DNA of 64,000 bases, from positions 23,230-87,229 of the forward strand of contig CAYXYK010000004.1 in NCBI GenBank assembly GCA_964469335.1, in the 5' to 3' direction. This document shows positions 3,228 to 63,875 of this stretch, in pieces (the stretch's first letter is position 1; each line of letters starts with the position of its first letter). Source of the stretch: an uncultured Candidatus Saccharibacteria bacterium. GTDB lineage: Bacteria; Patescibacteriota; Minisyncoccia; Phycocordibacterales; UBA6899. Made by a program: the position numbers and the translations under genes. The notes under the pieces were generated by a model. It worked only from the letters and a program-made list of their open reading frames with translations. It did not search any database and was not told where the DNA came from.

Positions 3228-3845
3228 ATGAAGGACGAAAACAGAAGCAAGAACATCTTCTCGATCGGGGGAAAGGAGTCGGCACTCGAGCGTATCGCCA
3301 TCGGTTCTACCCGTTATATCGGTTCCCCGACGTCACTTGTCGTGCATACGGTCTTCTTCATTTCCGTCTTCGGTTTGCAGCGATTCGGTTTTTCTTTCGA
3401 GCAGACCATGCTTATCCTCACTACCGCCGTTTCCCTCGAAGCGATCTACCTATCGCTGTTCATTCAGATGACCGTCAATCGTCAGGCGCGCCAGATCGAA
3501 GAGGTCTCTGACGATGTCGATGATATTCAGGAAGACGTCGAGGAGATCTCAAAAGACGTCGACGGAATCCAAGAGGATGTCGAAGAGATCTCCAAGGACA
3601 TTGACGAGATGCTCGAGGACGTGGACAGTATCCAGGAGAACACCGAAGAGATCAATGCCGACATGGAAGGCATCCATGAGCATATTGAACATATCAAAGA
3701 GAATGTTGAGGACCTTTCCGAGGAATTCGAACGTGACGACTTCGAAGAGACTATCGATGATCAGAAGGTCGAGAAGATCGAACGAGTACTTGAAGAGCTC
3801 CTCTCTGAAGTGAAAGCACTGAAGCGCGAAAAAAGCGGAGTATGA
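3228..3845 (+). CDS. DUF1003-like membrane protein with C-terminal acidic 11-residue (hendecad) tandem repeats
   Basis: Two TM helices followed by QMTVNRQARQ, the DUF1003 signature. C-terminal DVDDIQEDVEE/ISKDVDGIQED/VEEISKDIDEM... repeats. Confidence 0.65.
   Translation: MKDENRSKNIFSIGGKESALERIAIGSTRYIGSPTSLVVHTVFFISVFGLQRFGFSFEQTMLILTTAVSLEAIYLSLFIQMTVNRQARQIEEVSDDVDDIQEDVEEISKDVDGIQEDVEEISKDIDEMLEDVDSIQENTEEINADMEGIHEHIEHIKENVEDLSEEFERDDFEETIDDQKVEKIERVLEELLSEVKALKREKSGV
3514..3720 (+). repeat. 33-nt in-frame tandem repeat (about 6 units) encoding the acidic hendecad repeats
   Basis: gacgtcgaggagatctcaaaagacgtcgacggaatccaagag / gatgtcgaagagatctccaaggacattgacgag... periodicity 33 nt. Confidence 0.7.
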
Positions 3846-4480
3846 AGATAACCAAAGTTGGGCATTCGTGCCTTTTCATCGAACTTCCGACACTTGCGCT
3901 CCTTATCGATCCCGGGACGTATGCCACTGTGCCGAGTTTCGAGAAGCTTGATCTCATCCTTCTCACGCACGAGCATGCCGACCACTTCGACCCCGAAACG
4001 ATCAAGAAACTGCTTGCGAAGCACAAGGAGTGCGAGATCCTCACTCACGCAGGAATGCGAAAGACCCTTGCGACCTTTGATATTCCCTCGACCTTGATCG
4101 AGGACGGAGAGGTCTGCGTCAGAAAGCGAGTGAGCATCGAGCGCACAGGGGATACACACGCATGTATCCACAAGGACCTGCCGCAACTTGAGAATTGCGG
4201 ATTCTTGGTCAACGAAGAATTCTTTTACCCCGGCGACTCATTCGTGATTCCCAAAAAGAAGGTCAAGACGCTCGCACTTCCTGTCGCAGCTCCGTGGATG
4301 CGGCTCGAAGAGTGCATCGATTATGCGATGGCAATGAAGCCGGAAGTGGTCTTTCCGGTTCACGACGGGATGCTCCGACCCGATCGCATGACGCCGACGA
4401 GACGGATCCCCGCGATGCTCTTGGAGAAAGAAGGCATCAGATTCGTTGAGATGCAAGACGGCTGGACCAATGAATTCTAA
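3842..4480 (+). CDS. MBL-fold metallo-hydrolase
   Basis: HEHADHFD (HxHxDH zinc-binding motif). Start overlaps the upstream stop (ATGA), suggesting translational coupling. Confidence 0.8.
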   Translation: MKITKVGHSCLFIELPTLALLIDPGTYATVPSFEKLDLILLTHEHADHFDPETIKKLLAKHKECEILTHAGMRKTLATFDIPSTLIEDGEVCVRKRVSIERTGDTHACIHKDLPQLENCGFLVNEEFFYPGDSFVIPKKKVKTLALPVAAPWMRLEECIDYAMAMKPEVVFPVHDGMLRPDRMTPTRRIPAMLLEKEGIRFVEMQDGWTNEF

Positions 4481-4499
4481 ACGGAGTTCGCCCTGAATC

Positions 4500-4582
4500 G
4501 CGAGCTACTTCGTTGGCCTCGTCACGAAATAACTCAACGTACCATTAAGTACATCTCGTCATTTCGTTCCTTTCCGCCTCAT
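4500..4582 (+). repeat. novel intergenic repeat element, degenerate copy E8
   Basis: ctacttcgttggcctcgtcacg...tcAACGTACcattaaGTACATctcgtcatttcgttcctttccgcctc aligns to the core of copies E1-E7 (GTAC-N6-GTAC hairpin + T/C-rich tail). Lies directly 3' of the MBL gene. Confidence 0.5.
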
Positions 4583-4632
4583 ATCTCATCGATTAATGAC
4601 AAACTCCTTGAGATGCTTACTACCATTTCGTT

Positions 4633-5682: not shown

Positions 5683-5740
5683 TATGCCACGGAACGGTCC
5701 CGCTTGTTTTTTGAGGATGCTGCAATATAATAACCAGTAT

Positions 5741-6289
5741 ATGCAACAATTCTTTAGAGATCTGAATGCCTCGAAAAGTCGAGGATTCACTTTGATCGAA
5801 CTATTGGTCGTCATCGCCATCATCGGCATCCTCTCATCGGTCATCTTTGCATCGCTTTCGATCGCGAGAGAGAAGTCGCGCGATTCGAAACGAGTCGCGG
5901 AAGTGGGTCAGATCCGCAAGGCATTGGAGATATACTACGATGTGAACCAAACATATCCTTCGACCACACCGACAGGGTATACCGGTGAGGATGCGGCGGT
6001 ACAGCTACTCGCTGCAAACGGTCTCCTCGGGCACACCCCGGTGCCGCCTCCCGGAATCAGTACTACCTATCTCTATCGCGGAGTCAGTATCAACCCGCTC
6101 ACAGGAGTGAGGTCGGAATGCGTGACGGGACCGTGTAATAATTTCGAACTGGCGATCACACTCGAGCGTGATGATAATATCGTGCTTGCTTCCGATCTAG
6201 ATCTGACGACAGGGACACTCTACGGAGCGAACCCGAATTGTGCGGATTCGACGGCAGGAGTAGACCAGTGCTACGACGTCGGACCGTAA
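5741..6289 (+). CDS. type IV pilin-like protein (prepilin-type N-terminal cleavage/methylation domain)
   Basis: ..SKSRG|[24 protein letters not shown] is the canonical G|FTLIE prepilin motif with a hydrophobic helix. The -10-like tataat lies about 10 nt upstream. Confidence 0.85.
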
Positions 6290-6295
6290 GTCACT

Positions 6296-6406
6296 CCAAA
6301 TTTTCCCATCTACATCGTTGTGGGTCCCAAGCAACGCAGTCGACGTACCACAGAGTACGCCTCTTTTCTCGCTTTTCCCACGCCTCGTATCTGAAAAAAT
6401 TTGGAG
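6296..6406 (+). repeat. novel intergenic repeat element, copy E1
   Basis: Terminal inverted repeat ccaaatttt / aaaatttgg. Core CCCATCTAC..GTTGTGGGTCCCAAG..gacGTACcacagaGTACgcc..CTTTTCCCACGCC. Immediately 3' of the pilin gene. Confidence 0.7.
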
Positions 6407-6464
6407 CGCCTTCAATTCAGGATGGCTTCACGGAAAGGGGGAAATAGGGTAATGTAAGCTTTCA

Positions 6465-7916
6465 ATGGCACAAGGAGAGGTAATTCTGCGCTTCGAAGAC
6501 GTCAGTTTCGAGCATGGCCCGAGGAAACCCATATTGAATGAGGTGAATTTCACTGTACGGCGTGGTGCGAAAGTCACCCTGATGGGACAAAATGGCGCCG
6601 GGAAATCGACGCTGTTCTCCCTTATCACCAAGACCGCAAAGCCTGAATCGGGCAAGATCCATATCGGCGCGGGAATCTCGATCGCGCTCTCGCATCAGGT
6701 GATCCCGAAGGACAGCCTCGATCTCACGGTACGCGCATTCTTCGAGAAGTGTTTTGATAAGAAGGTCTATGATATAGACCCGAAGATTGACGCGGTACTT
6801 GAAGTAGTGAACCTTCACGCGCCACACGATCGCATCGTCCGTTCATTCTCTGGCGGCCAGCAGGCGAGACTTCTTCTTGCTTCTGCGCTGATCCAGGATC
6901 CGGACCTTCTTCTTCTTGATGAGCCGACCAACAATCTCGACAAAGCCGGCATCGCACATCTTACTGATTTCCTCCAGAACTACCCGAAGACGGTGATCGT
7001 CATCTCTCACGATGCCGACTTCCTCAACTCATTCACCGAAGGAGTGCTCTATCTCGACGTGCGTACACAGAAAATGGAACAGTATGTCGGTAACTATACC
7101 GATGTGGTCAAGGACATTTCCGCCCGTATCGAGAAGGAGAATCGCGCGAATGCTCTCCTCCAGAAAGAGATCCAGCGCAACAAGGATCAGGCCAATGTGT
7201 TCTCCCACAAGGGAGGTAACATGCGTGCACTCGCGAAGCGTATGCGCGAGAAGGCAGCCGACATGGAAGAAGAGGTCGTCGAAGTGCGAAAAGAGGATAA
7301 GACAATCCGCCCGTTCGTCATTCCCGCCCAGACCGATTTCATCGGGAACGCTCTCACCATCGAGTCACTCACCGTCATCAAGAATCATAAGCCGACAGAA
7401 AAGAAAGTCCGCATCGAGCTCCGCAAGAAGCAACATCTCCTCCTTCAGGGTCCGAACGGGATAGGAAAGTCGACACTGCTTGAATCGCTCGCCAACGGCA
7501 CCGCAAAGGGCGCGAAGATCGCCGAAGGTGTGCGTGTCGGCTACTATCGTCAGGATTTCTCCACACTTAACTTCGAAGATACCGTCTATCAGTCACTCGC
7601 GGGCATCATGGTGAAAGTTGACGAAGAGAAACTTCGCTCAGTTGCGGCAAGCTTCCTCATCACCAAAGAACTCATCTATGCCAAAATTGGCAGTCTCTCG
7701 GAAGGACAGAAGGGATTGGTCGCATTCGCACGCCTCGTACTCGAAGTGCCGGGACTCCTCATTCTCGATGAGCCGACCAACCACATCAATTTCCGCCATC
7801 TTCCTGCGATCGCGAAGGCGTTAGACCAGTACGAGGGGGCGATGATTCTCGTCTCGCACGTGCCGGAGTTCGTGAAGCAGATTCGGATAGACGACATTCT
7901 CGACCTCGAGAAATAG
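6465..7916 (+). CDS. ABC-F family ATPase (two tandem ABC domains, no TM domain)
   Basis: Domain 1: GQNGAGKST, LSGGQQARL, LLLDEPTNNLD. Domain 2: GPNGIGKST, LSEGQKGL, LILDEPTNHIN. Confidence 0.9.
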   Translation: MAQGEVILRFEDVSFEHGPRKPILNEVNFTVRRGAKVTLMGQNGAGKSTLFSLITKTAKPESGKIHIGAGISIALSHQVIPKDSLDLTVRAFFEKCFDKKVYDIDPKIDAVLEVVNLHAPHDRIVRSFSGGQQARLLLASALIQDPDLLLLDEPTNNLDKAGIAHLTDFLQNYPKTVIVISHDADFLNSFTEGVLYLDVRTQKMEQYVGNYTDVVKDISARIEKENRANALLQKEIQRNKDQANVFSHKGGNMRALAKRMREKAADMEEEVVEVRKEDKTIRPFVIPAQTDFIGNALTIESLTVIKNHKPTEKKVRIELRKKQHLLLQGPNGIGKSTLLESLANGTAKGAKIAEGVRVGYYRQDFSTLNFEDTVYQSLAGIMVKVDEEKLRSVAASFLITKELIYAKIGSLSEGQKGLVAFARLVLEVPGLLILDEPTNHINFRHLPAIAKALDQYEGAMILVSHVPEFVKQIRIDDILDLEK

Positions 7917-7923
7917 AAAGAAT

Positions 7924-8907
7924 CTATTTTTTAGGGATGAACTTTATGCTCATGAGTAGCTCCTTGATCCGCGAGGTACTGTATTTGAGGTTCGTATCCG
8001 AAAGAGTCCAAATGAGACCTCCTTTTACAAAGTAGTAGTACGTTGCATCTGTGTCCTTGAGGACATGAACAGTTAGTCCGTTTATTTTCTCTCCCGAAGT
8101 ACCCTCAGTCAGTTGGGCCATCCAGTCATCAATCGTGAACTGCTTCGGAGGGAATGCTGCTTCAAGCTCAACATTGCTGCCGCTGTAACCCATGAGGTTG
8201 TATATTCGCAATTTTATGCCTAAGCTCGTGTCGTGCTCAATGACGAGAGTATTTTTCCCAGAGTACTCAAGCGAAAATCCCCACTTCTCGTTTTTGTAAA
8301 CTCTCCGTGCTTGCTGTTCTTTTATGATCGCAGTAATTTCTTCTGAAGAGTGCTTTGTAAAAAAAGTCATATTTGAGACCATCTCCTCTGCAGTGTATGC
8401 CTCTGGTTGAGGTCCCTCTGCGATGCTGTACTCGAACTCATTTTGTAAAATAAAAACTGTTTTCCAACCGTCAGCATTAATTGCTATAAGTGTGGGTACT
8501 GCGCCATTTAAATTTATAGACGTAGAGAACCCTTGCTCCTCAAGATCCTTTTTTAGCTCATCAAGTGAAAAATAACTCGAAGTAGCAAAATCACCCTCAA
8601 GACGATTATATATGCTAGGTTCTTTGTATTTTGACTCTTTATCGTAAGGTCCAACAAAGACATGCTCGGGTGATAGTGATTCAGTCACGATTGGGTCGGC
8701 ATACTGAAGCTCGAACCCGAAATCTTCGTTTCGCCAGACGCTCGTCGTTGCGGCTGTTTTCGGTGCACCTACTGCGGGTTGCCCAGCAGTGTGCGTGTTC
8801 ATATTCGGAGAAGTCCCTTTCGTGTTTAGATAGAACACTCCGCATGCCATGACGAGGAACAGTGTGAAAGTCACAACTATCCACATCGTTATTTTTTCAA
8901 ATTTCAT
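7924..8907 (-). CDS. hypothetical membrane-anchored/secreted protein (327 aa), AT-rich gene
   Basis: Start chosen at MKFEKITMWIVVTFTLFLVMA (N-terminal TM/signal). The longer ORF to 9525 would overlap the helicase gene. Local GC is visibly lower than flanking genes. Confidence 0.6.
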   Translation of the reverse strand: MKFEKITMWIVVTFTLFLVMACGVFYLNTKGTSPNMNTHTAGQPAVGAPKTAATTSVWRNEDFGFELQYADPIVTESLSPEHVFVGPYDKESKYKEPSIYNRLEGDFATSSYFSLDELKKDLEEQGFSTSINLNGAVPTLIAINADGWKTVFILQNEFEYSIAEGPQPEAYTAEEMVSNMTFFTKHSSEEITAIIKEQQARRVYKNEKWGFSLEYSGKNTLVIEHDTSLGIKLRIYNLMGYSGSNVELEAAFPPKQFTIDDWMAQLTEGTSGEKINGLTVHVLKDTDATYYYFVKGGLIWTLSDTNLKYSTSRIKELLMSIKFIPKK

Positions 8908-8982
8908 TATTAAAAGTATAACAAACCCGCTTGAAAAATACGTTATTTTGCATTCCACCCAAATCCACCGTATCATCCATAC

Positions 8983-10727: not shown

Positions 10728-11105
10728 ATGGAAAAGTACCATAAATACATCCGCTGGGCATTGCTCGGCGCACTCACCGCAGGTTTTCTCTATGCCGGGG
10801 TGATAAAACTGCTGGGGAAGGATAATGCACTCTTCGTTTCATGGGGTTTCCCGGTCTGGTTCACCTATGTGGTCGGAGCGCTCCAGTCATTCGGCGCAGT
10901 CGCGCTCTTCTATCGACCGACGGTGAAAATGGGGATGTTCTTCCTGACAGTGATCATCATCGGTGCGATCCTCACCCTCGCTGGAAAACATATGTTCTAT
11001 CCGGACATCTTGGCTCCGATCGCATTCCTGCTCGGACTTTTCGGACTCATGTACCTCAAAGCGAAACGTCCAGAAGAAGACGAAGGACGCTGGGGCCTTT
11101 TGTAG
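10728..11105 (+). CDS. small DoxX-like membrane protein (125 aa)
   Basis: Four predicted TM helices; GVIKLLGKDNALFVSWGFP resembles DoxX. Confidence 0.55.
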   Translation: MEKYHKYIRWALLGALTAGFLYAGVIKLLGKDNALFVSWGFPVWFTYVVGALQSFGAVALFYRPTVKMGMFFLTVIIIGAILTLAGKHMFYPDILAPIAFLLGLFGLMYLKAKRPEEDEGRWGLL

Positions 11106-11228
11106 AACAACCAAATTAATCCCATCTGCGACGTTGCGGGGCCCAAGTGTCTCAGTCAACGTACCTCGAAGTACGTCTCCCTCGTCACTTTTCCCGCGCC
11201 TTGCATATGGGCCAATTTGATTGTTCTA
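11103..11228 (+). repeat. novel intergenic repeat element, copy E2 (most complete)
   Basis: 15-bp terminal inverted repeat tagaacaaccaaatt / aatttgattgttcta. Core CCCATCTGCG..GTTGCGGGGCCCAAG..aACGTACctcgaaGTACGTc..CTTTTCCCGCGCC. Confidence 0.75.
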
Positions 11229-11285
11229 GAAATTCCAAAGTAAATATTTTGCGGGAAGAGGGGAATTGCGGTATCGTCTATAGGC

Positions 11286-13727: not shown

Positions 13728-14483
13728 ATGGAGAAGTCATCATCGACAAAATACGTAGTTGCCGCGCTCGCGGTGTTAGTGGTGGTCGGAGGAGGTATCG
13801 CATTCTATCTCAATAATAAGACCGTTGTGTCCGGGACCACTGTGCCGGCAATCACATCGGAGAAGAATGAGCCAGTAGCATCGAGCGGTACATCGCTCAA
13901 GGACCTGCTTGCCAGCACCGGGCCGACCAAATGCTCGGTCACGACATCGACGGACAAGGCAGACTCGACCGGAATGGTCTATATCGCTGACGGGAAGATG
14001 CGTACGGATTTCACCAACACGATGAAGGTGGGAAATCTTGCAGGAAAGGTCCAGGTCGCGCACATGATCGTCGATACCGATTACAGTTACATGTGGGGTG
14101 ACGGCGAGATGAAGTTCGGCATCAAGATGGCAAAACAAGAGATCCTCGACGTACAGCCGGGAGCGGGGAATAGTCCGCAGAACGAAGCGGCGATCGACAT
14201 GAATGAGAAATCAGACTACAAGTGTGGCGGCTGGAAGATCGATGAGCGACTGTTCGTTCCTCCCTCGGATATACAGTTCCAGGACATGAGTGCGATGATG
14301 AAGAGCATGCCGTCCGTACAGTCGGGCACGAATGTCACAGGAGGCACGGCGAAGACCTCGGGAGGCGGCTCCGTCGCAGTCCCTCCCGGAATGAGTGCAA
14401 CGGATATGTCGGCGATGTGCGGACAATGTGACCAGGCGGGGGAGAGTAGGGATCAGTGTAGGGCTGCACTCGGCTGCAAATAA
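13728..14483 (+). CDS. hypothetical secreted/membrane-anchored protein (251 aa)
   Basis: N-terminal TM YVVAALAVLVVVGGGIAFYL. C-terminal Cys-rich tail. No recognised domain. Confidence 0.6.
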   Translation: MEKSSSTKYVVAALAVLVVVGGGIAFYLNNKTVVSGTTVPAITSEKNEPVASSGTSLKDLLASTGPTKCSVTTSTDKADSTGMVYIADGKMRTDFTNTMKVGNLAGKVQVAHMIVDTDYSYMWGDGEMKFGIKMAKQEILDVQPGAGNSPQNEAAIDMNEKSDYKCGGWKIDERLFVPPSDIQFQDMSAMMKSMPSVQSGTNVTGGTAKTSGGGSVAVPPGMSATDMSAMCGQCDQAGESRDQCRAALGCK

Positions 14484-14606
14484 AGGAACTTTCAAATATC
14501 CCCATCTGCTGCGTTGTGGGTCCCAAGCAGTTCGGTCAATGTACGAGAAGTACATCTCCCTCACTGCTTTTCCCACGCCTAGCATCTGGAGAATATTTGG
14601 AAGTCC
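14484..14606 (+). repeat. novel intergenic repeat element, copy E3
   Basis: Flanks ggaactttcaaatat / gaatatttggaagtcc. Core CCCATCTGCTGC GTTGTGGGTCCCAAG..aATGTACgagaaGTACATc..CTTTTCCCACGCC. Hairpin 2 carries the compensatory C>T/G>A change. Confidence 0.7.
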
Positions 14607-14627
14607 CTAAATCCCATGATTATTCTA

Positions 14628-16766: not shown

Positions 16767-16796
16767 GGAGGGACCTTGGTCCCTCCTCTTTTATTG
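16767..16796 (+). terminator. rho-independent terminator-like hairpin (plus strand)
   Basis: GGAGGGACC-tt-GGTCCCTCC followed by tcttttatt. No obvious plus-strand CDS upstream. Confidence 0.5.
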
Positions 16797-17008: not shown

Positions 17009-17041
17009 GGCGCCTAGCTAAATGCAGGCGCCTTTTTGTTT
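17009..17041 (+). terminator. rho-independent terminator (plus strand) ending an apparently non-coding ~200 nt region
   Basis: GGCGCCT-agctaaatgc-AGGCGCC followed by tttttgttt. Confidence 0.55.
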
Positions 17042-17049
17042 CTCGGCTT

Positions 17050-17135
17050 TCAGAGCATGCGGTCTTCTGCGTTGTGGGTCCCAAGTCCTAGTTCACCGTA
17101 CGAATAGTATGGCTCACTTCGCCACTCGCCTTACA
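17050..17135 (+). repeat. novel intergenic repeat element, degenerate copy E4
   Basis: ..CTTCTGC GTTGTGGGTCCCAAG..caCCGTACgaataGTATGGc..cacttcgccactcgcc. Hairpin 2 retains pairing only through a G.U wobble. Confidence 0.55.
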
Positions 17136-17353
17136 GGCGCTGTACACCTTTTGGATTTCTCGGAAAAAATCTCAAAAGGTCTTGCACGGTGGCCCCATAA
17201 GAATGGGTTCCCAATAGCCACCGCTCACCCACGCCTTGAATCCCATCAATTTCAGAAAGCCGATTTCCCAGCATCCTTGTCACAATTCGGGAAATGGTGG
17301 GTTATCCAAGGTAGCGCTCGAATTAGCCCAAGAAATAGGGTACCATTTAGGGA

Positions 17354-17908: not shown

Positions 17909-18623
17909 AATGAAGAAAGATATGAACGACAACAACGAAAACCCGATCGAACTGAATGAGGAGAACAAGATCCTCAGGCTTGTAGACGCGCATGCACGAA
18001 GCGGCGGTCTTTCTCATTCGAGCGGTGACGCTGATGCTCGCGAATATGACGAGCTTTTCACGCTGCTTACAGAGTCCCGAAACTCTCTGAAGCCCGATGC
18101 CGCACTGCTTCGAAAGACACTCTCAAAACTCCCCGCGAGCGGAACCCCGTACTCGCTCGACCGTGCTGTCGGCGCTGCGGTGCCGAGTCCCTATGCCGCC
18201 CCCGTCAATTGGTTGTATTCCCGAGTCTCCTCGTGGAAGGTAGCGACTCCGGTCATCGTACTTTTCATTGCGGTCGCGACCATCATCGGTGCATCTCCGA
18301 AAAAGGGACAGGCTCCCACCATCATGCCCATCAGCAGTGAGACTATCGCGCCACTTTCGATCGAAAGCGCTGAACCCTCGACTTTTGCCATGACGGAAGT
18401 GACGCCGGACGCTGCGTCACCACGAATGATGATGGCGAAGATGTCGCAAACCACCGTTCCTTCCACGACGCCGCAGAACGTCGGAGAGCTCATCGCCCTA
18501 CTTTCGAACGAGGCAGACGGAGATATCGACCTCGGCATTTCCGATGTCAGCGATCCGCTTTATTCCTTTGATATAGAGTCAGTAGACGCTATCGAACAAC
18601 CGTATGACACGCAAACGATCTAA
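17889..18623 (+). CDS. putative anti-sigma factor (single-pass membrane protein)
   Basis: Overlaps the 3' end of the sigma gene. Soluble N-terminus, one TM (ATPVIVLFIAVATIIGA), extracytoplasmic C-terminus. Confidence 0.5.
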   Translation: MSVRQYRMKKDMNDNNENPIELNEENKILRLVDAHARSGGLSHSSGDADAREYDELFTLLTESRNSLKPDAALLRKTLSKLPASGTPYSLDRAVGAAVPSPYAAPVNWLYSRVSSWKVATPVIVLFIAVATIIGASPKKGQAPTIMPISSETIAPLSIESAEPSTFAMTEVTPDAASPRMMMAKMSQTTVPSTTPQNVGELIALLSNEADGDIDLGISDVSDPLYSFDIESVDAIEQPYDTQTI

Positions 18624-19374
18624 CAATAAGGCCGGAAAAGTACTCCTTCTCTCATTCATCGGACTGGGGCTGTTGGTTATGCCCGAAGTCGGTTTCGCGG
18701 CAGGGAAGACTTCAGCAGCCAACCGCACGAAAGTGGATTTCTGCTCCGCTGTCGATGCGTTCGCTGAAAAACTGAGTAAAGACATGACCGAAAGTACCGC
18801 ACGTTTCGGAGCGAAGGAGACCGATCGCCAAACACAACTCGACCTGAAGATCGCGCAACAGGAAGCTGAGCGACAGAATAGCCGTTTCGCTTGGGACAAT
18901 TCACGAGACAAGGTCTATACCGACCTCTCTGCTCGTGCTTCCACTGACGCACAGAAGGCGGCAATAAAAAAGTTCAGAGCCGCGGTCGACCTCGCGGTCG
19001 AGGCACGAAGGAAGAGCGTTGACAAGGCGACCACCGACTTCAAATCCGGTGTCGACAAGGGGATCAGTTCTCGGAAGACAGCGGTCGAGAAGGCTACCCA
19101 GCTTTTCAAGGATTCGACCGACAAAGCACTCTCTGACGCGAAAGCAGACTGTACCAAAGGGGTGGCGTCGGCGGATGCCCGCGCTCGATACCTCACTGCG
19201 CTCGAAGCAGCACAACAACAGCTGAAGCAGTCACTCGCACAGATCAAGACGACTGATAACCTCCGCACGCTAGTGAGTACACGGCAAACTGCAATCGAGC
19301 AGGCGGCGAAGGATTTCAAGTCTGCGGTCACGAAGGCTGAGAATACACTCAAGCTCGCATTCCCTGACGCCTAA
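18604..19374 (+). CDS. secreted alpha-helical Ala/Lys-rich hypothetical protein
   Basis: Signal peptide (KVLLLSFIGLGLLVMPEVGFA), then repetitive helical K/A/D-rich sequence. Third gene of the sigma operon. Confidence 0.6.
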   Translation: MTRKRSNNKAGKVLLLSFIGLGLLVMPEVGFAAGKTSAANRTKVDFCSAVDAFAEKLSKDMTESTARFGAKETDRQTQLDLKIAQQEAERQNSRFAWDNSRDKVYTDLSARASTDAQKAAIKKFRAAVDLAVEARRKSVDKATTDFKSGVDKGISSRKTAVEKATQLFKDSTDKALSDAKADCTKGVASADARARYLTALEAAQQQLKQSLAQIKTTDNLRTLVSTRQTAIEQAAKDFKSAVTKAENTLKLAFPDA

Positions 19375-19423
19375 AAACCTCCGCAAGCGGCGAGCTTTGT
19401 CGTCGTAAGGTGAAACACTTATA

Positions 19424-19481
19424 CCCATGCGGCTCGGTCAACGTACAATAAGTACGTCTTCCTCGCCGCATTTCCCACTCC
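19424..19481 (+). repeat. novel intergenic repeat element, partial copy E5 (lacks hairpin 1)
   Basis: CCCATGCGGC TCGG TCAACGTACaataaGTACGTCTTCC TCGCCGCATTTCCCACTCC. Confidence 0.55.
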
Positions 19482-19560
19482 TAAAATCTCACTCACTTGT
19501 AGAGGTTTTTAATAGAAAGAAATTTTTGTAATAAAAGAGTTATTGTCGTATGCTCAGTAA

Positions 19561-22850: not shown

Positions 22851-24128
22851 TCACTTCTTGGCGCCGGCGGCGGCACCGGTCTGGAGCGTGCCGGTCGCAC
22901 GAACGGTGTCGGGCACGACACGCGACTTGAGGTAGGAGCCTTGCGGCCCACGGCACATCTTGACCTTGGCGCCGGATGCATCGGTGAATTCCTCCACCTT
23001 GCAGGCGACGCGCTCTTGCTCGATGCGCTGGGTCGGTGCTTCCATCTTCCAAGTCATGCCGGCGATGGTGCTCAGGATGCCGCTGACTTCGTCTCGGGTG
23101 GGACCCTTCGGAACTTCGACCAACTTGTACGCGCCCGGGAGCTCGCACGGGATGATCTGGACCTTGGTGACGATGCGGGACATCGCGGAGGACGCGCCGC
23201 CGCCGGCGTTGCCGCCGCCGTTGGTGCCTGCGACGCCGAGGGACATCGAGCTTGCTGCCGAAACGGTCGGAAGTGCCGTCGTGATGATGGACTGCGAACC
23301 GAACCGGCGGATCACCTTTTCACCTGCTTCGGTGAAGGTGCGCTCGATGTACATCAGCTGCTCCTTGGTCGTTTCGTCGAAGACTGGAGCGATCTCCATG
23401 TCCTCGCCGAGGTCGATCTTGGTATTGGTGAAAAAGCCGATGTGGGTACCGAGCACTCCCTTCCTGGTGACCGTCATGAGCGGGCCGCACGCGGTGCGCT
23501 CGGTCACGATCTGACTGGTGGTCACCACCGATGCGGGTGTCGGCATGAAGAGCGGCAACACCGAGACCTGCTTGTAGTTCGTGGTCGTTGTGGTGTTGGT
23601 CGTCGTCGAATTGCCGGCCCCGTTACCCGTCGCGTTTCCGCCTGCTGCATTGCCGCCAGCGGCGTTGCCTCCGGCCGCGTTTCCGCCTGCTGCATTGCCT
23701 CCGGCACCGCCGTTGGCGGTCGTTGCGTTGTTCAGGGTGGAAGTGAGTGCTTGACGCTGGTCCTGCGAGAGGCTCGCGATCAGCTTCTGTTGCTGTTCGG
23801 TCGAGAGCTTGTTCCAGTTGTCCGAGATGGCCTTGGCATCACCGCCGGTGGCGTTGCCGCCGTTTGCGAGTGCTGCTGCGATCGCCGCCGCGGCCGCCTT
23901 GGCTTCCGCTTCGGCTTTTGCTGCCGCGTCGGCGTCCGAGGAGGGGTTCGCATTGACCGTGTCGGTGACGGTGATCGGTTGACCACCGGGAGTCGGCGAC
24001 GGGCAGACGTACTTGCCGGCCTCGTTCAGGAGCGAGATGCTCCCGTCGGGGCATTTGGGCCACGCGTGCGCGCTGGCAGCGAAGCCGAGGCTGAGGATGG
24101 CGAAGGAAATGGCATTGAGCTTCTTCAT
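22851..24128 (-). CDS. secreted hypothetical protein with Ala-rich region and (AGGNA)n repeat
   Basis: Signal peptide MKKLNAISFAILSLGFAASAHA. GGNAAGGNAAGGNAAGGNAAGGNA tract. Lies in a GC-rich segment. Confidence 0.7.
   Translation of the reverse strand: MKKLNAISFAILSLGFAASAHAWPKCPDGSISLLNEAGKYVCPSPTPGGQPITVTDTVNANPSSDADAAAKAEAEAKAAAAAIAAALANGGNATGGDAKAISDNWNKLSTEQQQKLIASLSQDQRQALTSTLNNATTANGGAGGNAAGGNAAGGNAAGGNAAGGNATGNGAGNSTTTNTTTTTNYKQVSVLPLFMPTPASVVTTSQIVTERTACGPLMTVTRKGVLGTHIGFFTNTKIDLGEDMEIAPVFDETTKEQLMYIERTFTEAGEKVIRRFGSQSIITTALPTVSAASSMSLGVAGTNGGGNAGGGASSAMSRIVTKVQIIPCELPGAYKLVEVPKGPTRDEVSGILSTIAGMTWKMEAPTQRIEQERVACKVEEFTDASGAKVKMCRGPQGSYLKSRVVPDTVRATGTLQTGAAAGAKK
23631..23706 (-). 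repeat. 15-nt in-frame tandem repeat (about 5 units) encoding GGNAA repeats
   Basis: gcgtttccgcctgctgcattgccgccagcggcgttgcctccggccgcgtttccgcctgctgcattgcc. Confidence 0.6.
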
Positions 24129-24141
24129 GTTGTGGTACTCC

Positions 24142-25182
24142 TTACTTGAGGGTTGTTGATGCGAGAAGGTTGCTGTTGTTGTCGGGAACGGCCCCTTGCA
24201 AGAGGAACCGGTTGATGAAGCCCGAGACTTCGGCGTAGGCCGAACGTTCTCGGTCGGTCGTCGGCGGGGGGATCCCGCCTTGGTACTTCGCTTTCCAGAT
24301 CAGGATCGCGAGAGGTGTGACGTCGTGCTCTCCTCCGACGATGTGTTCCAGTTCCCGTTTGATGGGGAGGATGGTGTCGATGTCGGGTGTTGCGGACCGT
24401 ACGGACCAGTTGCCGCCCTCGGCGTGATACACGAAGCTGTAGACGAGACCGTGAGCGCGCACAGTATACTCGCGTGCACGTACCTCGCGTTTGTCTCGCC
24501 ACTTCGCCGTGACCGATTGCCACAGGGCATTGTCCTCGAATTGCATCAGCGCGAACTCTTCGCCCGCGACCACTGAGATGTGCTCGTATTCGTCGTGTAC
24601 GACCTTGTCCGAGAGCTGGCTCGCGACGTCGGTCGGAAGATCGCTCTTCACGAGGAATGTTTCCAGCGTGCAGTTCGTGCACGGCCGGTCGAGATCAGGG
24701 GTCGTTTCGAGAGAAGTCGTCTGCACCACTACTTGGGTGCGGATGATGCGCCTCTTCTTGGCTGGCTTGGTCGGGATCGGCGGCAGTGCCTTTGTGGCGC
24801 TGCTCTCTTGTACCGTGACCGGTCGCTTCGCCGAGTCGGCGATGTCCTTCTGGACGATCGCGATCGCTTCTGCGAGGGTTGCCTTGCCTTTTTCTGCTGC
24901 GACAACCTTTGGAGCAGTAGCGAGCGTTTCCGTGACGTTCACTCGCACATCCGCTTGGGGCGGAGGGAGGGGGACGTTGTAGGTCTCGCCGATGTACATC
25001 CAATAGAGCGGAGCCTTGATCTTCCTCTTGTTGGCGTTGATGATCTGGGCGGGGGTCGTGCCGGTCGCTTTCGCAACCCGCTCGACACTGTCGCCGCGTA
25101 TCGCGGTGTGCGTTTCTGCGTGTGCAGCCATGCCGAAAAGGCAGAGCGCAAGCGCAAGAAGAGCACGGATGATGATGGTCAT
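24142..25182 (-). CDS. LysM domain-containing secreted protein
   Basis: Signal peptide, then LysM (TAIRGDSVERVAKATGTTPAQIINANK). Unknown C-terminal domain. Co-oriented with the GGNAA protein. Confidence 0.7.
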   Translation of the reverse strand: MTIIIRALLALALCLFGMAAHAETHTAIRGDSVERVAKATGTTPAQIINANKRKIKAPLYWMYIGETYNVPLPPPQADVRVNVTETLATAPKVVAAEKGKATLAEAIAIVQKDIADSAKRPVTVQESSATKALPPIPTKPAKKRRIIRTQVVVQTTSLETTPDLDRPCTNCTLETFLVKSDLPTDVASQLSDKVVHDEYEHISVVAGEEFALMQFEDNALWQSVTAKWRDKREVRAREYTVRAHGLVYSFVYHAEGGNWSVRSATPDIDTILPIKRELEHIVGGEHDVTPLAILIWKAKYQGGIPPPTTDRERSAYAEVSGFINRFLLQGAVPDNNSNLLASTTLK

Positions 25183-28049: not shown

Positions 28050-28245
28050 GAGAGAATCTCCTTGTGAAATGAACTAGCCTGTGTCGAGTCTAGCAAATCA
28101 TACTTAGCATGTCAAGTATTAGCATACGAACCTTTCGGTGGGGACCTCCCTGAGACACCACTCCTTGCAGGAGGTGAGGGGCTTGGGTAAAATATCCGTA
28201 CAATCATGCAATAAGCGTGGTCGCCTATTTTTTCATAATTCCGAT

Positions 28246-28716
28246 ATGATCGAACTGCGCAAAGAAACGAACGCAAAATATAAAGTCCGCGTCGGACGCT
28301 CGAAGACCGGACTCGGGCTCTATGCGATGGAGCCAATTCCGAAGGGGAAGAAGATTCTCGAATACATCGGCAAGGTGATGACCGATGAGTCTGACGATGA
28401 CAAGACCAGTCTCTATATCTTCAATATCAACAAGAAGGTCGATATCGACGGAGCCCCACGCTGGAATACGGCCCGCTACATCAACCATTCCTGCCGCCCG
28501 AATGCCGAGAGCGATACCTACAAGGATCATGTCTGGATCAAATCGACGAGGAACATCATGCTCGGCGAAGAGATCACCTATGACTACGGTAAAGAGTACT
28601 GGAACGAGTACATCAAGCCGAAAGGATGTCGCTGCGACAAATGTGTCGAGAAGCGCGAAGGTCTCGCACCGGGGACACTCAAACGCGGGAGAGCAGCCGC
28701 CGCGAAGAAGAAGTAG
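28246..28716 (+). CDS. SET domain protein (putative protein lysine methyltransferase)
   Basis: ARYINHSCRPN (the NHSC.PN SET motif) and EEITYDYG (ELT.DY motif). C-terminal Cys cluster CRCDKC (post-SET-like). Confidence 0.8.
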   Translation: MIELRKETNAKYKVRVGRSKTGLGLYAMEPIPKGKKILEYIGKVMTDESDDDKTSLYIFNINKKVDIDGAPRWNTARYINHSCRPNAESDTYKDHVWIKSTRNIMLGEEITYDYGKEYWNEYIKPKGCRCDKCVEKREGLAPGTLKRGRAAAAKKK

Positions 28717-59325: not shown

Positions 59326-60177
59326 ATGACAAAAACGAAGCGTATCGGCGAGATATTCAAGACCCAGCGGGTGACCGAGGGTGCGGGGGTGAAGCTGCGC
59401 CGAGGTTTCGGGAATGTCGAAGTTCCTCGCTTCGACCCCTTTCTCTTGTTCGATGATTTCAGTGGTGCGGAGCCAGCGGACTATATGGCCGGATTTCCGT
59501 GGCACCCGCATCGCGGCATCGAGACCGTCACATATGTTCTCCGTGGCGACGTCCGTCATCGTGACTCGATGGGGAATGAAGGAGTGATCGGTAAGGGTGA
59601 CCTGCAGTGGATGAGCGCAGGCAGCGGGATCATTCACGAAGAGATGCCCGAGGGAGTCAGCGGGATGAAAGGTTTCCAGTTGTGGGTGAATCTTCCGAAA
59701 CATGCAAAGATGTCGAAGCCGAAGTATCAGGATATCAAAGTGAAGACCGTCCCCGAGGTGGGACTTCCTGGAGGCGGACGACTCAAGGTCATCGCGGGTG
59801 AGGCTGGCGGCGAGCATGGTCCGGTGAAGGATATCGTCGCGAGTCCGCTCTATGTCGACGTGTTACTCAAGGACAATGAGCGCTTCGCGTTTCCCGTTAC
59901 GGAAGGAAATACTACCTTCGTCTATTTGATCGAGGGAGAGCTCGGAACCGGAGTCGAGGGCAGTATCATCTATGACAAGGGAACCATCCTTCTCTACGCA
60001 CGCGATGGCGACCTGGTGGAACTCAAAGCGGGCTCTTCAGGCGCACGCTTCCTCTTGGTCTCAGGAAAACCATTGAATGAGCCGGTCGCCTGGTACGGTC
60101 CTATCGTGATGAATTCACATGATGAACTTCAGACTGCCTTCAAAGAACTTGAAATCGGTACCTTCATCAAAGATTGA
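59326..60177 (+). CDS. pirin family protein
   Basis: GFPWHPHRGIETVTYVLRGDVRHRDSMGN is the pirin cupin His motif. Confidence 0.9.
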   Translation: MTKTKRIGEIFKTQRVTEGAGVKLRRGFGNVEVPRFDPFLLFDDFSGAEPADYMAGFPWHPHRGIETVTYVLRGDVRHRDSMGNEGVIGKGDLQWMSAGSGIIHEEMPEGVSGMKGFQLWVNLPKHAKMSKPKYQDIKVKTVPEVGLPGGGRLKVIAGEAGGEHGPVKDIVASPLYVDVLLKDNERFAFPVTEGNTTFVYLIEGELGTGVEGSIIYDKGTILLYARDGDLVELKAGSSGARFLLVSGKPLNEPVAWYGPIVMNSHDELQTAFKELEIGTFIKD

Positions 60178-60290
60178 GTCGCGCGGCGCACTTCGTCGTT
60201 GTGGGGCCCGAAGTTCTCAGTCACCGTACGAAGAGTACGGCTCCATCGAACTTCTTCCCATGCCTCGAATTGCATCCACTCGTCTCAATC
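60172..60290 (+). repeat. novel intergenic repeat element, copy E6
   Basis: Terminal inverted repeat gattgagtcg / cgtctcaatc. Core GTTGTGGGGCCCGAAG..cACCGTACgaagaGTACGGc..cttcttcccatgcc. Directly 3' of the pirin gene. Confidence 0.7.
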
Positions 60291-60343
60291 TTTCAAGGAG
60301 GAAGCAGGTTGCTTGAATCCGTATTTCGACTTATAACTCATAC

Positions 60344-62664: not shown

Positions 62665-63754
62665 TCTTGCCTCATTCAAACAATTCAGTGCACTTTCGTT
62701 CAGCGGGAGTCGTTTTTCGACCAAAGAGCAGACTATGTTCGCGAAGCGAATGTCGTTCTTGGTGAAGGCAGGGGTGCCCCTGATCGAGTCGCTGTCCCTC
62801 ATTAAGAAGCAAACGAAATCGAAGCAGAAGTCTCTGCTCTACGGACAAGTCATCGAAGACGTGAACAACGGTCTGTTCCTTTCGACCAGTTTAGCCCGTC
62901 GTGGCAATCTGTTCGGGGAGTTCGCGGTCAACCTGATCCGTGTCGGGGAGGAGAGCGGAATACTCAGTCAGAATCTCTCGTACCTTGCCGATGAGCTCGA
63001 GAAGAAGGATGCGCTCCGTCGCAAGGTGATCGGCGCGCTCGTGTATCCCGCAGTGATCACGGTCGCGACCCTTGGGATCACCGGTGTACTGACGATGTAC
63101 ATCTTTCCGAAGATATTGCCGGTATTCTCGAGTTTGCATGTCGCGCTTCCACTATCGACCCGGATGCTGATCGCGATCTCTGCGTTCATGCACAGCTATG
63201 GCGCATGGTTCTTTGTCGGGCTATTCGCATTCGGAGCACTGTTCGTTGTCGCAAAGAACAAGATCGAGGCGGTGCGCTATGCGAGCCACGGGCTCATCCT
63301 TCGCCTTCCGCTCTTCGGCAAGATGATGCGCGGGTACAATCTCGCGAACTTCTGTCGCACGCTTGGGCTACTCCTCCGGAGCGGGATCCAGGTCTCTGCC
63401 GCGCTCGAGATGACCGTCGAGACGACCGGGAATCTGGTGTACAAGAGAGCATACAAGGATATCCATCGTGCCGTCATGGTCGGCCTCCCGATCTCAAACG
63501 CGCTCTCGGAGCATCACCGACTCTTTCCCGATCTGCTCATCCATATGGTCGCGATCGGTGAGACCACAGGAAACCTCTCGAATGCACTGACCTATCTCTC
63601 TGAGATGTATGAGGCGGAAGTCGAAGAGATGACGAAGAATCTTTCGAGTGCGATAGAGCCGGTTCTGATGGTGACCATGGGTGTCCTGGTCGGCTTCATC
63701 GCGGTTTCGATCATTACTCCGATATATGAGATCACTCAGAACCTCCACGGATAA
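62657..63754 (+). CDS. pilC: type IV pilus inner membrane platform protein PilC / GspF family
   Basis: Two GspF repeats (..GVPLIESLSLI.. / ..GIQVSAALEMT..) with TM helices. Start overlaps the pilB stop. Confidence 0.9.
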   Translation: MNNLASFKQFSALSFSGSRFSTKEQTMFAKRMSFLVKAGVPLIESLSLIKKQTKSKQKSLLYGQVIEDVNNGLFLSTSLARRGNLFGEFAVNLIRVGEESGILSQNLSYLADELEKKDALRRKVIGALVYPAVITVATLGITGVLTMYIFPKILPVFSSLHVALPLSTRMLIAISAFMHSYGAWFFVGLFAFGALFVVAKNKIEAVRYASHGLILRLPLFGKMMRGYNLANFCRTLGLLLRSGIQVSAALEMTVETTGNLVYKRAYKDIHRAVMVGLPISNALSEHHRLFPDLLIHMVAIGETTGNLSNALTYLSEMYEAEVEEMTKNLSSAIEPVLMVTMGVLVGFIAVSIITPIYEITQNLHG

Positions 63755-63871
63755 CCGCCCGAATATGTCCGCCTGCTTTGTTGCGGAGGCTCCGCAACTC
63801 GGTCGATGTACCATGAGTACATCTTCCTCGTTGCGCACTCCGCGCCTCGCATCCAGAACATATTTGGGCGG
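63755..63871 (+). repeat. novel intergenic repeat element, copy E7 (between pilC and a pilin gene)
   Basis: Terminal inverted repeat ccgcccgaatatgt / acatatttgggcgg. Hairpin 1 is a perfect GTTGCGGAG-gc-CTCCGCAAC. Hairpin 2 is cgATGTACcatgaGTACATc. Confidence 0.7.
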
Positions 63872-63875
63872 CTAT

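Follow-up and report, generated by a model that had tools for sequence, protein, structure and literature searches.

Which kind of element recurs in one orientation and with one core behind the unrelated genes of an ultra-small bacterium? CPR bacteria account for much of bacterial diversity, yet to our knowledge next to nothing has been learned about how their transcripts are ended, stabilised or processed. The stretch of DNA considered here (the window) comprises 64,000 nucleotides from an uncultured Candidatus Saccharibacteria bacterium, a member of the CPR that the analysis places in the Paceibacterota. A previous reading made from the letters alone, the sequence-only reading, described in it a family of structured elements that all point the same way and sit at the 3' ends of genes. 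That family is real and its copies stand; their anatomy, some of their bounds and the proposed copy number are corrected below.

Eight copies in the window

The covariance model R1, derived from the eight window copies and run with filters off, recovers exactly these eight, all of them on the + strand, as had been reported. The core motifs are indeed over-represented relative to shuffled sequence: CGTTGYGGGKCCCAAG occurs 11 times against 1.6 expected, and the GTAC-N5/6-GTAC patterns yield 4+4 matches in the window against ~0.2. The intact copies E1, E2, E3, E6 and E7 score 92-120 bits, the decayed copies E0, E4 and E5 30-51 bits.

The focal full-length palindromic element, E2 (11099..11232, + strand, 112 bits, bounds from arm-to-arm alignment), folds into one hairpin of -48.2 kcal/mol (z = -6.9) whose 5' outer arm contains the TAG that ends the upstream gene (10728-11105). 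Its inner helix (11133..11201, + strand) pairs GTTGCGGGG (11133-11141) with CCCGCGCCT (11193-11201), according to the MFE fold and covariation, and encloses the tip hairpin ACGTAC-CTCGAA-GTACGT (11159..11176, + strand), the most conserved part of the family. E1 (6288..6412, + strand, 104 bits) is a full-length copy identified by its fold, with bounds by arm alignment, and follows a pilin-like gene (5684-6289); the orthologous copy in the related strain L001 differs in the inner stem, which is of the E6 type there. E3 (14484..14608, + strand, 120 bits, fold z = -6.5), likewise full-length, lies directly 3' of the TAA of gene 13728-14483 and is identical in L001. The full-length copy E6 (60161..60301, + strand, 92 bits, bounds by arm alignment) takes the TGA stop and the last codons of a Pirin gene (59326-60177) into its 5' arm; an orthologous element follows Pirin at locus L079. 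E7 (63751..63875, + strand, 108 bits) is full-length and fills the gap behind pilC (62657-63754); the next gene encodes a pilin, and its GTG start is found 5 nt past the 3' arm.

Three copies are decayed. E5 (19372..19511, + strand, 51 bits with the full model) carries an insertion in the 5' arm and starts at the TAA of gene 18604-19374; the span of 19424-19481 given before was too short, as the copy begins at ~19372 at the stop codon and ends at ~19511. E0 (4476..4613, + strand, 39 bits) lies between convergent genes and starts at the TAA of gene 3842-4480, and the same site in L001 is taken by a copy that is different, intact and oppositely oriented. E4 (17048..17158, + strand, 30 bits) is degenerate, with a fold no better than that of shuffles, and its site in L001 is occupied by a different, intact copy. 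It sits ~65 nt past its gene and behind a canonical intrinsic terminator (17009-17036), so that the rule that copies start at the stop codon holds for most of them but fails for E4.

Along the window the copies number 6 in 15 kb, 0 in 40 kb and 2 in 4 kb; between 19.5 and 60 kb the covariance model returns none, even with filters off. Neighbouring copies are spaced by 1.8-4.8 kb, with several housekeeping genes on both strands in between. The extrapolation to hundreds of copies per genome is not demonstrated: the distribution is patchy, and relatives have 1, 1 and 0 copies in 16-21 kb.

A single rod-like hairpin

Folding and covariation give one long rod per intact copy instead of the two consecutive hairpins described earlier. 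Every intact copy folds into one imperfect hairpin of 115-140 nt (z = -3.5 to -6.9) with the tip CGTAC-N5/6-GTACG. The motif GTTGYGGG, formerly assigned to a first hairpin of its own, pairs with CCCRCGCC on the far arm, and its Y covaries with the R on the 3' arm (C-G in 41/58 copies, T-A in 14/58). E7 alone has a local 9-bp hairpin in the 5' arm; the arms are otherwise generally not self-complementary. The tip hairpin with its compensatory changes had been recognised correctly, as had the outer inverted repeats, which form a long closing stem. In 58 copies the four central GTAC/GTAC pairs of the tip are invariant or nearly so, and the closing pair covaries (C-G 53/58, T-A 4/58). Below the tip lie three internal loops of conserved sequence. 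The inner stem is variable in sequence yet complementary. The outer stem is likewise variable, and the stop codon of the preceding gene falls at the start of its 5' arm or within it. The termini are thus the least conserved part of the element and the interior the most conserved; near the ends, only an inner AAAAT/ATTTT box is common to the copies.

Base pairing of the element is strongly supported. Among the 58 copies, 87.2% of cells are paired, compared to 67.1% after shuffling and 29-50% with slid partners, and double changes are found at 25 of 28 pairs. An independent metagenome set gives nearly the same picture (88.4% paired, 68.4% shuffled). The covariation claimed from the eight copies therefore exceeds chance: pairing is kept through double changes, well above both controls.

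The antisense strand folds better than the sense strand in 56 of 58 copies and is more stable by a mean of 8.5 kcal/mol, which leaves an RNA-level role unproven. Mismatches on the sense strand are pyrimidine-pyrimidine in 132 cases and purine-purine in 5, and a hand tally outside the conserved columns counts 28 A.C and 17 G.T mismatches. Given this pyrimidine excess and the lack of a preference for G.U over A.C, the usual signature of selection on a sense RNA is missing. The G.U wobble of E4, taken before as a sign of RNA-level selection, carries no weight in view of the better antisense folds and of A.C mismatches that are at least as frequent as G.T. The conserved T.C and C.T mismatches of the sense strand correspond to tandem G.A-type mismatches on the antisense strand.

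Gene ends, turnover and relatives

The upstream ORF can be assessed for 59 copies, and 48 of these lie at or over the stop codon, as is typical of REP elements: the codon abuts or lies in the outer stem, counted from 5 nt before the first paired base to 20 nt inside the 5' arm. There is no comparable tightness to the neighbouring gene on the 3' side. The flanking genes are oriented same/same in 30 cases, same/opposite in 7, opposite/same in 10 (including some ORF miscalls) and opposite/opposite in 3. The upstream genes are mutually unrelated and encode MBL-fold, pilin, Pirin, PilC and hypothetical proteins. Many copies have an outer 5' arm made up of the final stretch of the coding sequence, and several are followed by a promoter-like region of the next gene. 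Stop codons adjoining copies are TAA in 19, TAG in 19 and TGA in 6 cases (152, 156 and 100 for other genes). Several ends read TAGAAC...GTTCTA, which had suggested a relation to TAG stops; a GTAG tag, or an element that supplies or targets a TAG stop, was discarded because stop usage is as in other genes (TAG p = 0.52).

The hairpin lacks a U-tract behind it and the sequence past the 3' arm is not T-rich, hence the element is not a standard intrinsic terminator. A promoter and terminator scan of the window did not separate the elements from the background and flagged canonical terminators at 16767-16786 and 17009-17032 instead. At locus L042 a canonical intrinsic terminator is found in the slot of the element, as would befit a gene-end role.

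Copies are gained and lost between relatives. E7 is missing after pilC at three related loci (L079, L080 and L081), and in relatives without the element only 2 nt separate the pilC stop codon from the start of the next gene. This gap, together with the often coding outer 5' arm, argues against the proposal that a small element inserted into pre-existing terminator stems, which was rejected for the pilC site. At L065 an arm remnant alone is left. A 27-nt patch in the 5' arm of E2 is wholly different between the window and L001, with the remainder ~97% identical. No direct repeat is seen at filled and empty pilC sites, whose relatives are too diverged for base-exact junctions, nor in the flanks of 58 copies. 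Mean identity is 0.52 among the window copies (highest 0.69) and 0.51 between genomes, so that copies sharing a genome resemble each other no more than copies of different phyla do. This equality rules out recent amplification or concerted evolution, and shared motifs are not an effect of recent copying.

Orthologous copies are well conserved. At one site shared by three genomes the element is 81-97% identical, compared to 58-64% for third codon positions of the adjoining gene and ~50-62% for the downstream spacer; E6 and its L079 orthologue are 66% identical, with 41% for third positions. Judged by these alignments, orthologous copies evolve much slower than synonymous sites, and the element looks selectively maintained. 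The gene order between copies is syntenic in relatives, and where strains differ in gene content, the copies do not mark the borders of the difference. An all-against-all comparison of ORFs at 81 loci for a partner gene beside the copies returned syntenic orthologues only. A Pfam scan of ~50 window ORFs gave no transposase, recombinase, integrase or RAYT (Y1/HUH), and no parent IS of the element was seen.

In Paceibacteria and Saccharibacteria the family is present in multiple copies, and it occurs in many ultra-small (CPR) bacteria. Shorter, low-copy relatives are found in the Proteobacteria Polaromonas, Comamonas, Salmonella and E. coli, with single conserved copies in Polaromonas (R1 score 33-38 bits) and Comamonas (21.6 bits). 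The Comamonas copy, in C. odontotermitis WLL, is located in the spacer of a fadB-like and a fadA-like gene (NZ_CP083452, 336.36 kb), the Salmonella copy at queA-tgt. The E. coli relative, at pyrH-frr (K-12, 192.6-192.8 kb), is antisense to its flanking genes and ~120 nt from the stop codon. The Rfam model sX9 (RF02228) scores 40.9 bits (E = 6e-4) on the relative in Comamonas, 24.1 in Salmonella and 18.7 in Polaromonas, the best of these being below its gathering threshold of 44 bits. Its alignment covers the tip AUGUAC..GUACA, then CUCCGG and then the 3' arm of the proteobacterial relatives, and the match in Comamonas covers the tip hairpin and the 3' arm in sense orientation. The alignment points to a weak match between sX9 and the 3' half of these relatives, and the connection from the window to sX9 goes through the intermediates in Polaromonas and Comamonas. 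In Xanthomonas campestris pv. vesicatoria (strain 85-10, 2929816-2929890), sX9 is an sRNA of 75 nt confirmed by Northern blot and recorded with very few reads and no class assigned (PMC3300014); counting all instances, it ranks among the top 20 Rfam sRNA annotations by prevalence (PMC9029176). As a model, sX9 spans half of the palindrome and is taken to be a free-standing sRNA.

Within the window, an Rfam scan at gathering thresholds returns a single tRNA and nothing else, and a permissive scan around E2 gives no match even at E <= 10. Literature searches on the core sequence, on CPR repeats and on MITEs in CPR turned up nothing specific. The label 'undescribed' is thus apt insofar as no Rfam model matches a window copy, but goes too far in that the relatives overlap sX9 and a position hugging the stop codon is known for REP (PMC3733652). 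A phage origin was dismissed, with no match among viral contigs or phage records.

Known repeats and possible explanations

Several families of repeats are comparable in kind. REP elements are extragenic palindromes located mostly between co-directional or convergent genes, a few nt from the end of the upstream ORF and sometimes over its stop codon, as is the element (PMC3733652). They are found in several phyla, form hairpins of ~100 nt as dimers, and are proposed to be transcribed and to function as hairpins in the RNA (PMC3733652). The element differs in being one rod of 115-140 nt, whereas REP is a stem-loop of 20-40 nt or a pair of them; covariation supports arm-to-arm pairing and not the two inverted self-palindromic units of a REPIN. 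Unlike REP and REPIN, it has no conserved GTAG or CGTC tag, its ends being variable and its interior conserved, and no master sequence (within-genome identity ~52%); a RAYT gene was found neither among ~50 window ORFs nor recurring at 81 loci. ERIC/IRU, Correia/NEMIS, RUP and other MITE-like hairpin repeats of bacteria are, like the element, imperfect palindromes of ~100-150 nt inserted beside genes; they are co-transcribed and can stabilise or destabilise the flanking mRNA (PMC3733652). The resemblance to ERIC is in kind only. Conserved terminal inverted repeats that match a parent IS are a defining feature of MITEs, whereas the termini of the element vary from copy to copy; the target-site duplication, equally defining, is not seen at the pilC site, where the empty-site relatives are diverged, or in the 58 flanks. 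In contrast to MITE-like repeats, the same core spans CPR bacteria and Proteobacteria.

Our preferred reading, to which we assign a probability of roughly 45%, is that of an old and widespread family of palindromic gene-end elements of 115-140 nt, REP/ERIC-like in kind, which are co-transcribed, selectively maintained and rarely inserted. The sequence-only interpretation survives in part: the gene-end family and the long closing stem are retained, the two hairpins, the insertion into terminator stems and the G.U argument are not. The element lies on the coding-strand side of the upstream gene, where no room is left for a promoter, and would therefore be transcribed in CPR bacteria as a 3' UTR or intercistronic spacer. 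Once the terminating ribosome has departed, the RNA would form the rod, which may serve as a 3'-end structure, namely as a barrier to 3' exonucleases, as a site of transcript ending or processing, or both. The conserved loops are putative contact points for a protein. Their sequences are conserved across phyla and would be needless for a plain stabilising hairpin, which implies a partner; none was found among the ORFs at 81 loci and ~50 window ORFs. New copies would arise rarely and by insertion, with a hairpin-recognising single-strand DNA enzyme as a candidate, and would subsequently be kept by selection or left to decay. We note that the antisense stability bias, the mismatch pattern without the signature of a selected sense RNA, the implied partner that these ORFs did not yield, the antisense placement of the E. 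coli pyrH-frr relative far from the stop codon and the absence of a U-tract count against this reading.

The element is found at the ends of many unrelated genes, with one core in Paceibacteria and Saccharibacteria and relatives in cultured Proteobacteria, and evolves slower than synonymous sites without the signature of a recent burst known from ordinary mobile repeats. If the constraint reflects function, the element would be a widespread gene-end signal amenable to study in cultured Comamonas, Salmonella, E. coli and Xanthomonas, and sX9, a very frequently annotated 'sRNA', would become half of a palindromic repeat.

A purely selfish, non-autonomous element of the MITE/REPIN type is an unlikely explanation. 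Here a folded single DNA strand, probably the antisense strand, would be recognised and moved by a hairpin-specific enzyme, for example a HUH/Y1 transposase encoded elsewhere; the position at stop codons would mark where a gene-dense genome tolerates insertions, and the complementary variable arms would be kept by template-switch 'palindrome correction' during replication and not by selection. The antisense bias fits such an element, as do gain, loss and replacement of copies between relatives, the REP/RAYT precedent (PMC3733652), and a patchy distribution across distant phyla that, with the single copies in Polaromonas and Comamonas, suggests horizontal transfer. The 27-nt arm patch of E2 resembles arm conversion or copy exchange, and outer arms that copy coding sequence are consistent with template switching. 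Active MITE or REPIN populations, however, contain near-identical copies, which are lacking here, with identity within genomes equal to that between them. The least conserved part is the termini and the most conserved the interior, a target-site duplication is not seen at the pilC site with its diverged relatives or in the 58 flanks, and no transposase is found in the window ORFs or recurring beside the copies at 81 loci. Conservation of orthologous copies far above synonymous sites is unexpected of neutral junk, and tolerance alone leaves unexplained why the 5' and not the 3' boundary is pinned to the stop codon. Even a purely selfish origin would make for an unusual mobile element, with an internal conserved part and copy-specific ends.

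We regard as doubtful a stronger form of the functional reading, a so far unrecognised, factor-dependent gene-end signal common to CPR bacteria and Proteobacteria. The stop codon would then be enclosed by the base of an RNA or single-stranded DNA module, whose conserved internal loops would recruit a conserved protein or the ribosome. Such recruitment would define the 3' end of the mRNA, link that end to the termination of translation, or bring about the processing of polycistronic transcripts, and in Xanthomonas sX9 would represent a processing product of the module.

A DNA-level site seems rather improbable. In this view a hairpin or cruciform placed where transcription units end would be bound or cleaved, for example by a topoisomerase, a nucleoid protein or a replication-restart factor, and the purine-rich antisense strand would be the face recognised. 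REP/BIME elements provide precedents for binding of gyrase, IHF and Pol I. The antisense stability bias, the tandem G.A-type mismatches of that strand, the absence of a preference for G.U over A.C and the E. coli relative oriented opposite to its flanking genes all argue for such a site. Yet copies are oriented like their upstream gene and have their 5' boundary fixed to its stop codon, neither of which a duplex or cruciform needs; sX9 shows sense-strand RNA accumulating in a relative, and the site is without a known partner.

Independent genes for trans-acting sRNAs like sX9, whose variable stems would act as seeds for particular targets, are very improbable. The detection of sX9 as a discrete 75-nt RNA (PMC3300014), the match of its model to the 3' half of the relatives and its place among the 20 most prevalent Rfam sRNA annotations (PMC9029176) speak for this explanation. 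A start at or inside the upstream stop codon, however, leaves no room for a promoter, the variable segments are paired within the rod and unexposed, no terminator follows the copies, and the very few reads and missing class of sX9 fit a processing fragment (PMC3300014).

Integron-like attC recombination sites at the ends of gene cassettes, which share with the element the attC-like length, the imperfect palindrome of varying sequence and kept structure directly after stop codons, the orientation of the genes and the better fold of the bottom strand, are scarcely credible and contradicted on their defining features: RYYYAAC/GTTRRRY end boxes (R and L boxes) are absent, with the ends being the variable part, an integrase is absent among the window ORFs scanned, and instead of a cassette array there are several housekeeping genes, encoded on either strand and syntenic in relatives, from one copy to the next, with copies not bordering the strain differences in gene content. 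An attC-like box, GCCTAAC, occurs in just two related copies, unaccompanied by a matching GTT box.

Copies in the window and their fold

The eight repeat copies noticed in the sequence-only reading are real, and the family extends further than was supposed there, reaching several phyla and relatives in E. coli. The eight intervals, when read, are plainly related sequences that are also recovered by a repeat finder and by multiple alignment. Within the window, CGTTGYGGGKCCCAAG has 11 matches with up to three mismatches versus 1.6 expected from shuffled sequence, and GTAC-N5-GTAC and GTAC-N6-GTAC have 4 matches each versus approximately 0.2 expected from shuffling. A covariance model of the element (R1; 116 positions, 28 pairs) was derived from five window copies plus three from a related strain. 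Applied unfiltered to the entire window, it returned exactly the eight copies; all are on the + strand, and the stretch from 19.5 to 60 kb is empty of them. Of the eight, five are intact (92-120 bits), namely E1 (6288-6412), the focal copy E2 (11099-11232), E3 (14484-14608), E6 (60161-60301, after the Pirin gene) and E7 (63751-63875, after pilC); E5 (19372-19511, 51 bits), E0 (4476-4613, 39 bits) and E4 (17048-17158, 30 bits) are decayed.

Each intact copy folds as a single long imperfect hairpin tipped by the GTAC palindrome (z = -3.5 to -6.9). The two successive hairpins described earlier are not borne out: the supposed first hairpin is not a conserved pairing, its GYGGG being paired with CCCRC of the 3' arm, and the Y covaries with the R (C-G in 41 and T-A in 14 of 58 copies). 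From the outermost part inwards, the element consists of a copy-specific outer stem, an AAAAT/ATTTT box, CATCTGC opposite GCATCTG with two conserved T.C/C.T mismatches, a GCGGG/CCCGC helix whose closing pair is a nearly invariant T.G, an asymmetric loop with CCC inside, a copy-specific inner stem, a loop with TCA opposite CTC, and the tip CGTAC-N5/6-GTACG. In alignments fitted to R1, and hence biased in favour of structure, standard pairs occupy 87.2% of the pair cells of the 58 copies versus 67.1% when partners are shuffled and 29-50% when they are slid by 1-3 columns, 25 of the 28 pairs have changes on both sides, and an independent metagenome set yields 88.4% versus 68.4% (shuffled) and 30-47% (slid). 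Despite this fitting, the margins are large and the single-sequence folds are concordant.

Gene ends and turnover between relatives

Of 79 distinct copies, 59 are close to the end of an ORF on the same strand that is at least 70 codons long. In 48 of these 59, the stop codon falls in the interval from 5 nt before the first paired base to 20 nt into the 5' arm, and therefore the last codons and the stop often lie within the stem, as in E6 and in two loci from other genomes, L015 (GTGATTTAG / CTAAATCAC) and L027 (AAAGAGTGAGGG / CTCTCACTCTTT). The 3' boundary has no comparable tightness with respect to downstream genes. The upstream genes are mutually unrelated, and the identity of the adjoining stop codons is not special. 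In the window, the proposed location at gene stop codons holds for seven of the eight copies; it fails for E4, which is found behind a canonical terminator.

The orthologous loci suggested as a check on mobility do differ between relatives, both in presence or absence and by replacement of copies. E7 is located behind pilC in the window, and no element is found in relatives whose PilC is 80%, 65% and 60% identical; in one relative lacking E7, the pilC stop is followed after only 2 nt by the start codon of the next gene. The related strain (L001), whose DNA is 86-96% identical to the window, harbors a different, intact copy in reversed orientation at the E0 site, between convergent genes, and copies with different stems at the E4 and E1 sites, the latter copy being like E6. 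A 27-nt patch in the 5' outer arm of E2 (window 11106-11132, L001 10379-10405) differs at almost every base between both strains, E2 being approximately 97% identical outside the patch, and the window arm is a nearly perfect complement of the 3' arm common to both. This looks like arm conversion via template switching, or an exchange with another copy. The orthologous site past a small basic protein gene contains the element in four loci (three distinct sequences, L049 being a duplicate of L030), only a 3'-arm remnant in one locus, and a canonical intrinsic terminator in the slot in another.

Between genomes, the element at this site shares 81-97% identity, versus 58-64% for third codon positions in the neighbouring gene and about 50-62% for the downstream spacer, and E6 is 66% identical to its orthologue, with 41% for third codon positions; these identities describe a small sample of sites. 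Copy-to-copy identity is 0.52 within a genome versus 0.51 between genomes or phyla, hence the family shows neither recent amplification nor concerted evolution. The shared core is maintained separately in each copy, which is the chief argument against the copies as neutral debris.

Locus L079, from another genome, contains a direct duplicate of about 30 nt (7591-7620 versus 7414-7444; AAGTGAGGGCAATGGTGAAC.TTGTTGTTG) of the copy's own 5' arm, about 60 nt downstream of a post-Pirin copy and including bases that upstream end the Pirin coding sequence. This duplicate may be a trace left by copy formation, or else a truncated second copy. Two strain-specific additions adjoin the PIF1-like helicase gene: about 1 kb in the window (7916-8930), with a 327-aa gene on the - strand in the identical contig L004, and a 658-aa gene in L001 (7878-9976). 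Neither strain-specific segment is bounded by element copies.

Distribution and known elements

The window derives from a CPR bacterium known from metagenomes: the closest named PilC homologues of the window gene belong to Kaiserbacteria, Adlerbacteria and Parcubacteria, and exact-sequence look-ups of window proteins gave environmental assemblies only. A single specific pattern, searched in species-representative genomes, gave 40 loci, the majority of them from Ca. Saccharibacteria and Paceibacteria/Parcubacteria MAGs, and R1 matches almost all CPR loci at full length (40-100 bits). In several MAGs the copies are spread over multiple contigs. A MAG labelled Gammaproteobacteria (L043, GC about 40-50%) has four copies within 8 kb, around polA, rmuC, holA and gmk (827-1231, 7378-7845 region), two of them without an adjoining long same-strand ORF. 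Seven Polaromonas/Comamonadaceae MAGs harbor a shorter, nearly identical version (R1, 33-38 bits on Polaromonas); one Polaromonas locus also encodes an RNase P RNA (L037 596-923, bacterial class A, 208 bits), unrelated to the element. A metagenome collection adds 32 loci, many from small-cell groundwater fractions, and the viral contigs and phage records searched contain zero copies.

By BLAST, the Polaromonas copy matches one from the isolate Comamonas odontotermitis, on a complete replicon; the Comamonas copy starts 4 nt past a fadB-like stop codon and lies ahead of a fadA-like gene. The Comamonas copy matches the Salmonella queA-tgt spacer (83% over 59 nt, E = 1e-7), where a relative in sense orientation directly follows the queA stop codon (L084, Salmonella enterica CP082688, 1475-1590), as well as an E. 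coli sequence found in 4210 of 5426 complete genomes, at a median of two places. One such place, the pyrH-frr spacer of E. coli K-12 (L086, NC_000913, 192640-192760; also L083 and L085), contains an unannotated relative of about 120 nt with the core CCATCCTCA-CGTAC-N4-GTACG-CTCCGG on the strand opposite pyrH; this relative could not be matched to a named E. coli repeat. The relatives from Polaromonas to E. coli all fold as the same type of rod.

sX9 (Rfam RF02228) is a Xanthomonas sRNA of 75 nt validated by Northern blot (PMC3300014) and, in a count of every instance, one of the most prevalent Rfam sRNA annotations (PMC9029176). Because its model aligns to the tip hairpin and 3' arm of the proteobacterial relatives (Comamonas, 40.9 bits, just below the 44-bit threshold, E = 6e-4; Salmonella L084, 24.1 bits; Polaromonas, 18.7 bits), sX9 probably represents the 3' half of a palindrome homologous to them. 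Since none of the window copies matches sX9 directly, their link to it is transitive.

REPs are palindromic repeats that lie mainly between genes of co-directional or convergent orientation, no more than 20 bp from the end of the upstream ORF and sometimes overlapping its stop codon; REP dimers fold into larger hairpins, and an RNA role was proposed (PMC3733652). The element behaves in agreement with this description. Unlike REPs, however, it has neither a short tagged unit nor a master sequence, its arms are not palindromes in themselves, and no RAYT gene was seen among about 50 window ORFs scanned or recurring beside copies in 81 loci. The element is akin in kind to REP/ERIC-type gene-end palindromes, with unusual architecture and population structure. 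It does not fit the MITE type either, since variation is concentrated at its termini; no target duplication was seen in the pilC comparison or in the flanks of 58 copies, although the relatives with empty sites are too diverged to give base-exact junctions.

Readings of the element and other features of the window

Our preferred reading, tentatively held at a probability of roughly 45%, is that the hairpin would be co-transcribed with the upstream gene, that selection would retain it as an RNA structure of the 3' end, serving in protection, end definition or processing, that its conserved loops would serve a putative partner, and that copies would be gained through rare insertion. A purely selfish mobile element recognised by its hairpin, with palindrome correction producing the complementary variable arms, seems doubtful: the E2 patch and the site-to-site turnover would fit it, set against a separately maintained core and the lack of recent amplification.

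The proposed co-transcribed hairpin is weakened chiefly by the lack of a G.U signature on the sense strand, by the more stable antisense fold and by the absence of a partner. The antisense strand is more stable in 56 of 58 copies (mean difference 8.5 kcal/mol), because the pyrimidine-pyrimidine mismatches of the sense strand (132 versus 5 purine-purine) become G.A-type pairs on the other strand. The strand signals conflict, with one conserved T.G versus one frequent C.A (both sense). The G.U wobble of E4, earlier taken as a sign of RNA-level selection, carries no weight, since a hand tally outside the conserved columns shows no excess of G.T (17) over A.C (28) and E4 is a decayed copy. A hairpin or cruciform site at the DNA level, read on the antisense strand, would accommodate the better antisense fold; given the tight placement at stop codons, we regard it as unlikely. 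Free-standing sRNA genes, suggested by the sX9 alignment, are highly improbable for copies whose stems so often contain the end of a coding sequence. The hairpin form recalls attC sites, and these can be dismissed almost entirely, as end boxes and a cassette array are absent and no integrase was found among the window ORFs scanned.

The window also contains tandem 15-nt units (CCNGCNGCRTTKCCDCC) at 23626-23705 within two overlapping long ORFs (22851-24128, -; 22941-24149, +), neither with a Pfam match; the repeat probably belongs to a pentapeptide-type repeat protein. A SET-domain protein, unusual for a CPR genome, is encoded at 28138-28716. Likewise unusual in CPR is the protein encoded at 44915-46078, which combines DUF5667 with a cytochrome b5-like domain at its C terminus; its gene adjoins one for an ECF-type sigma factor.
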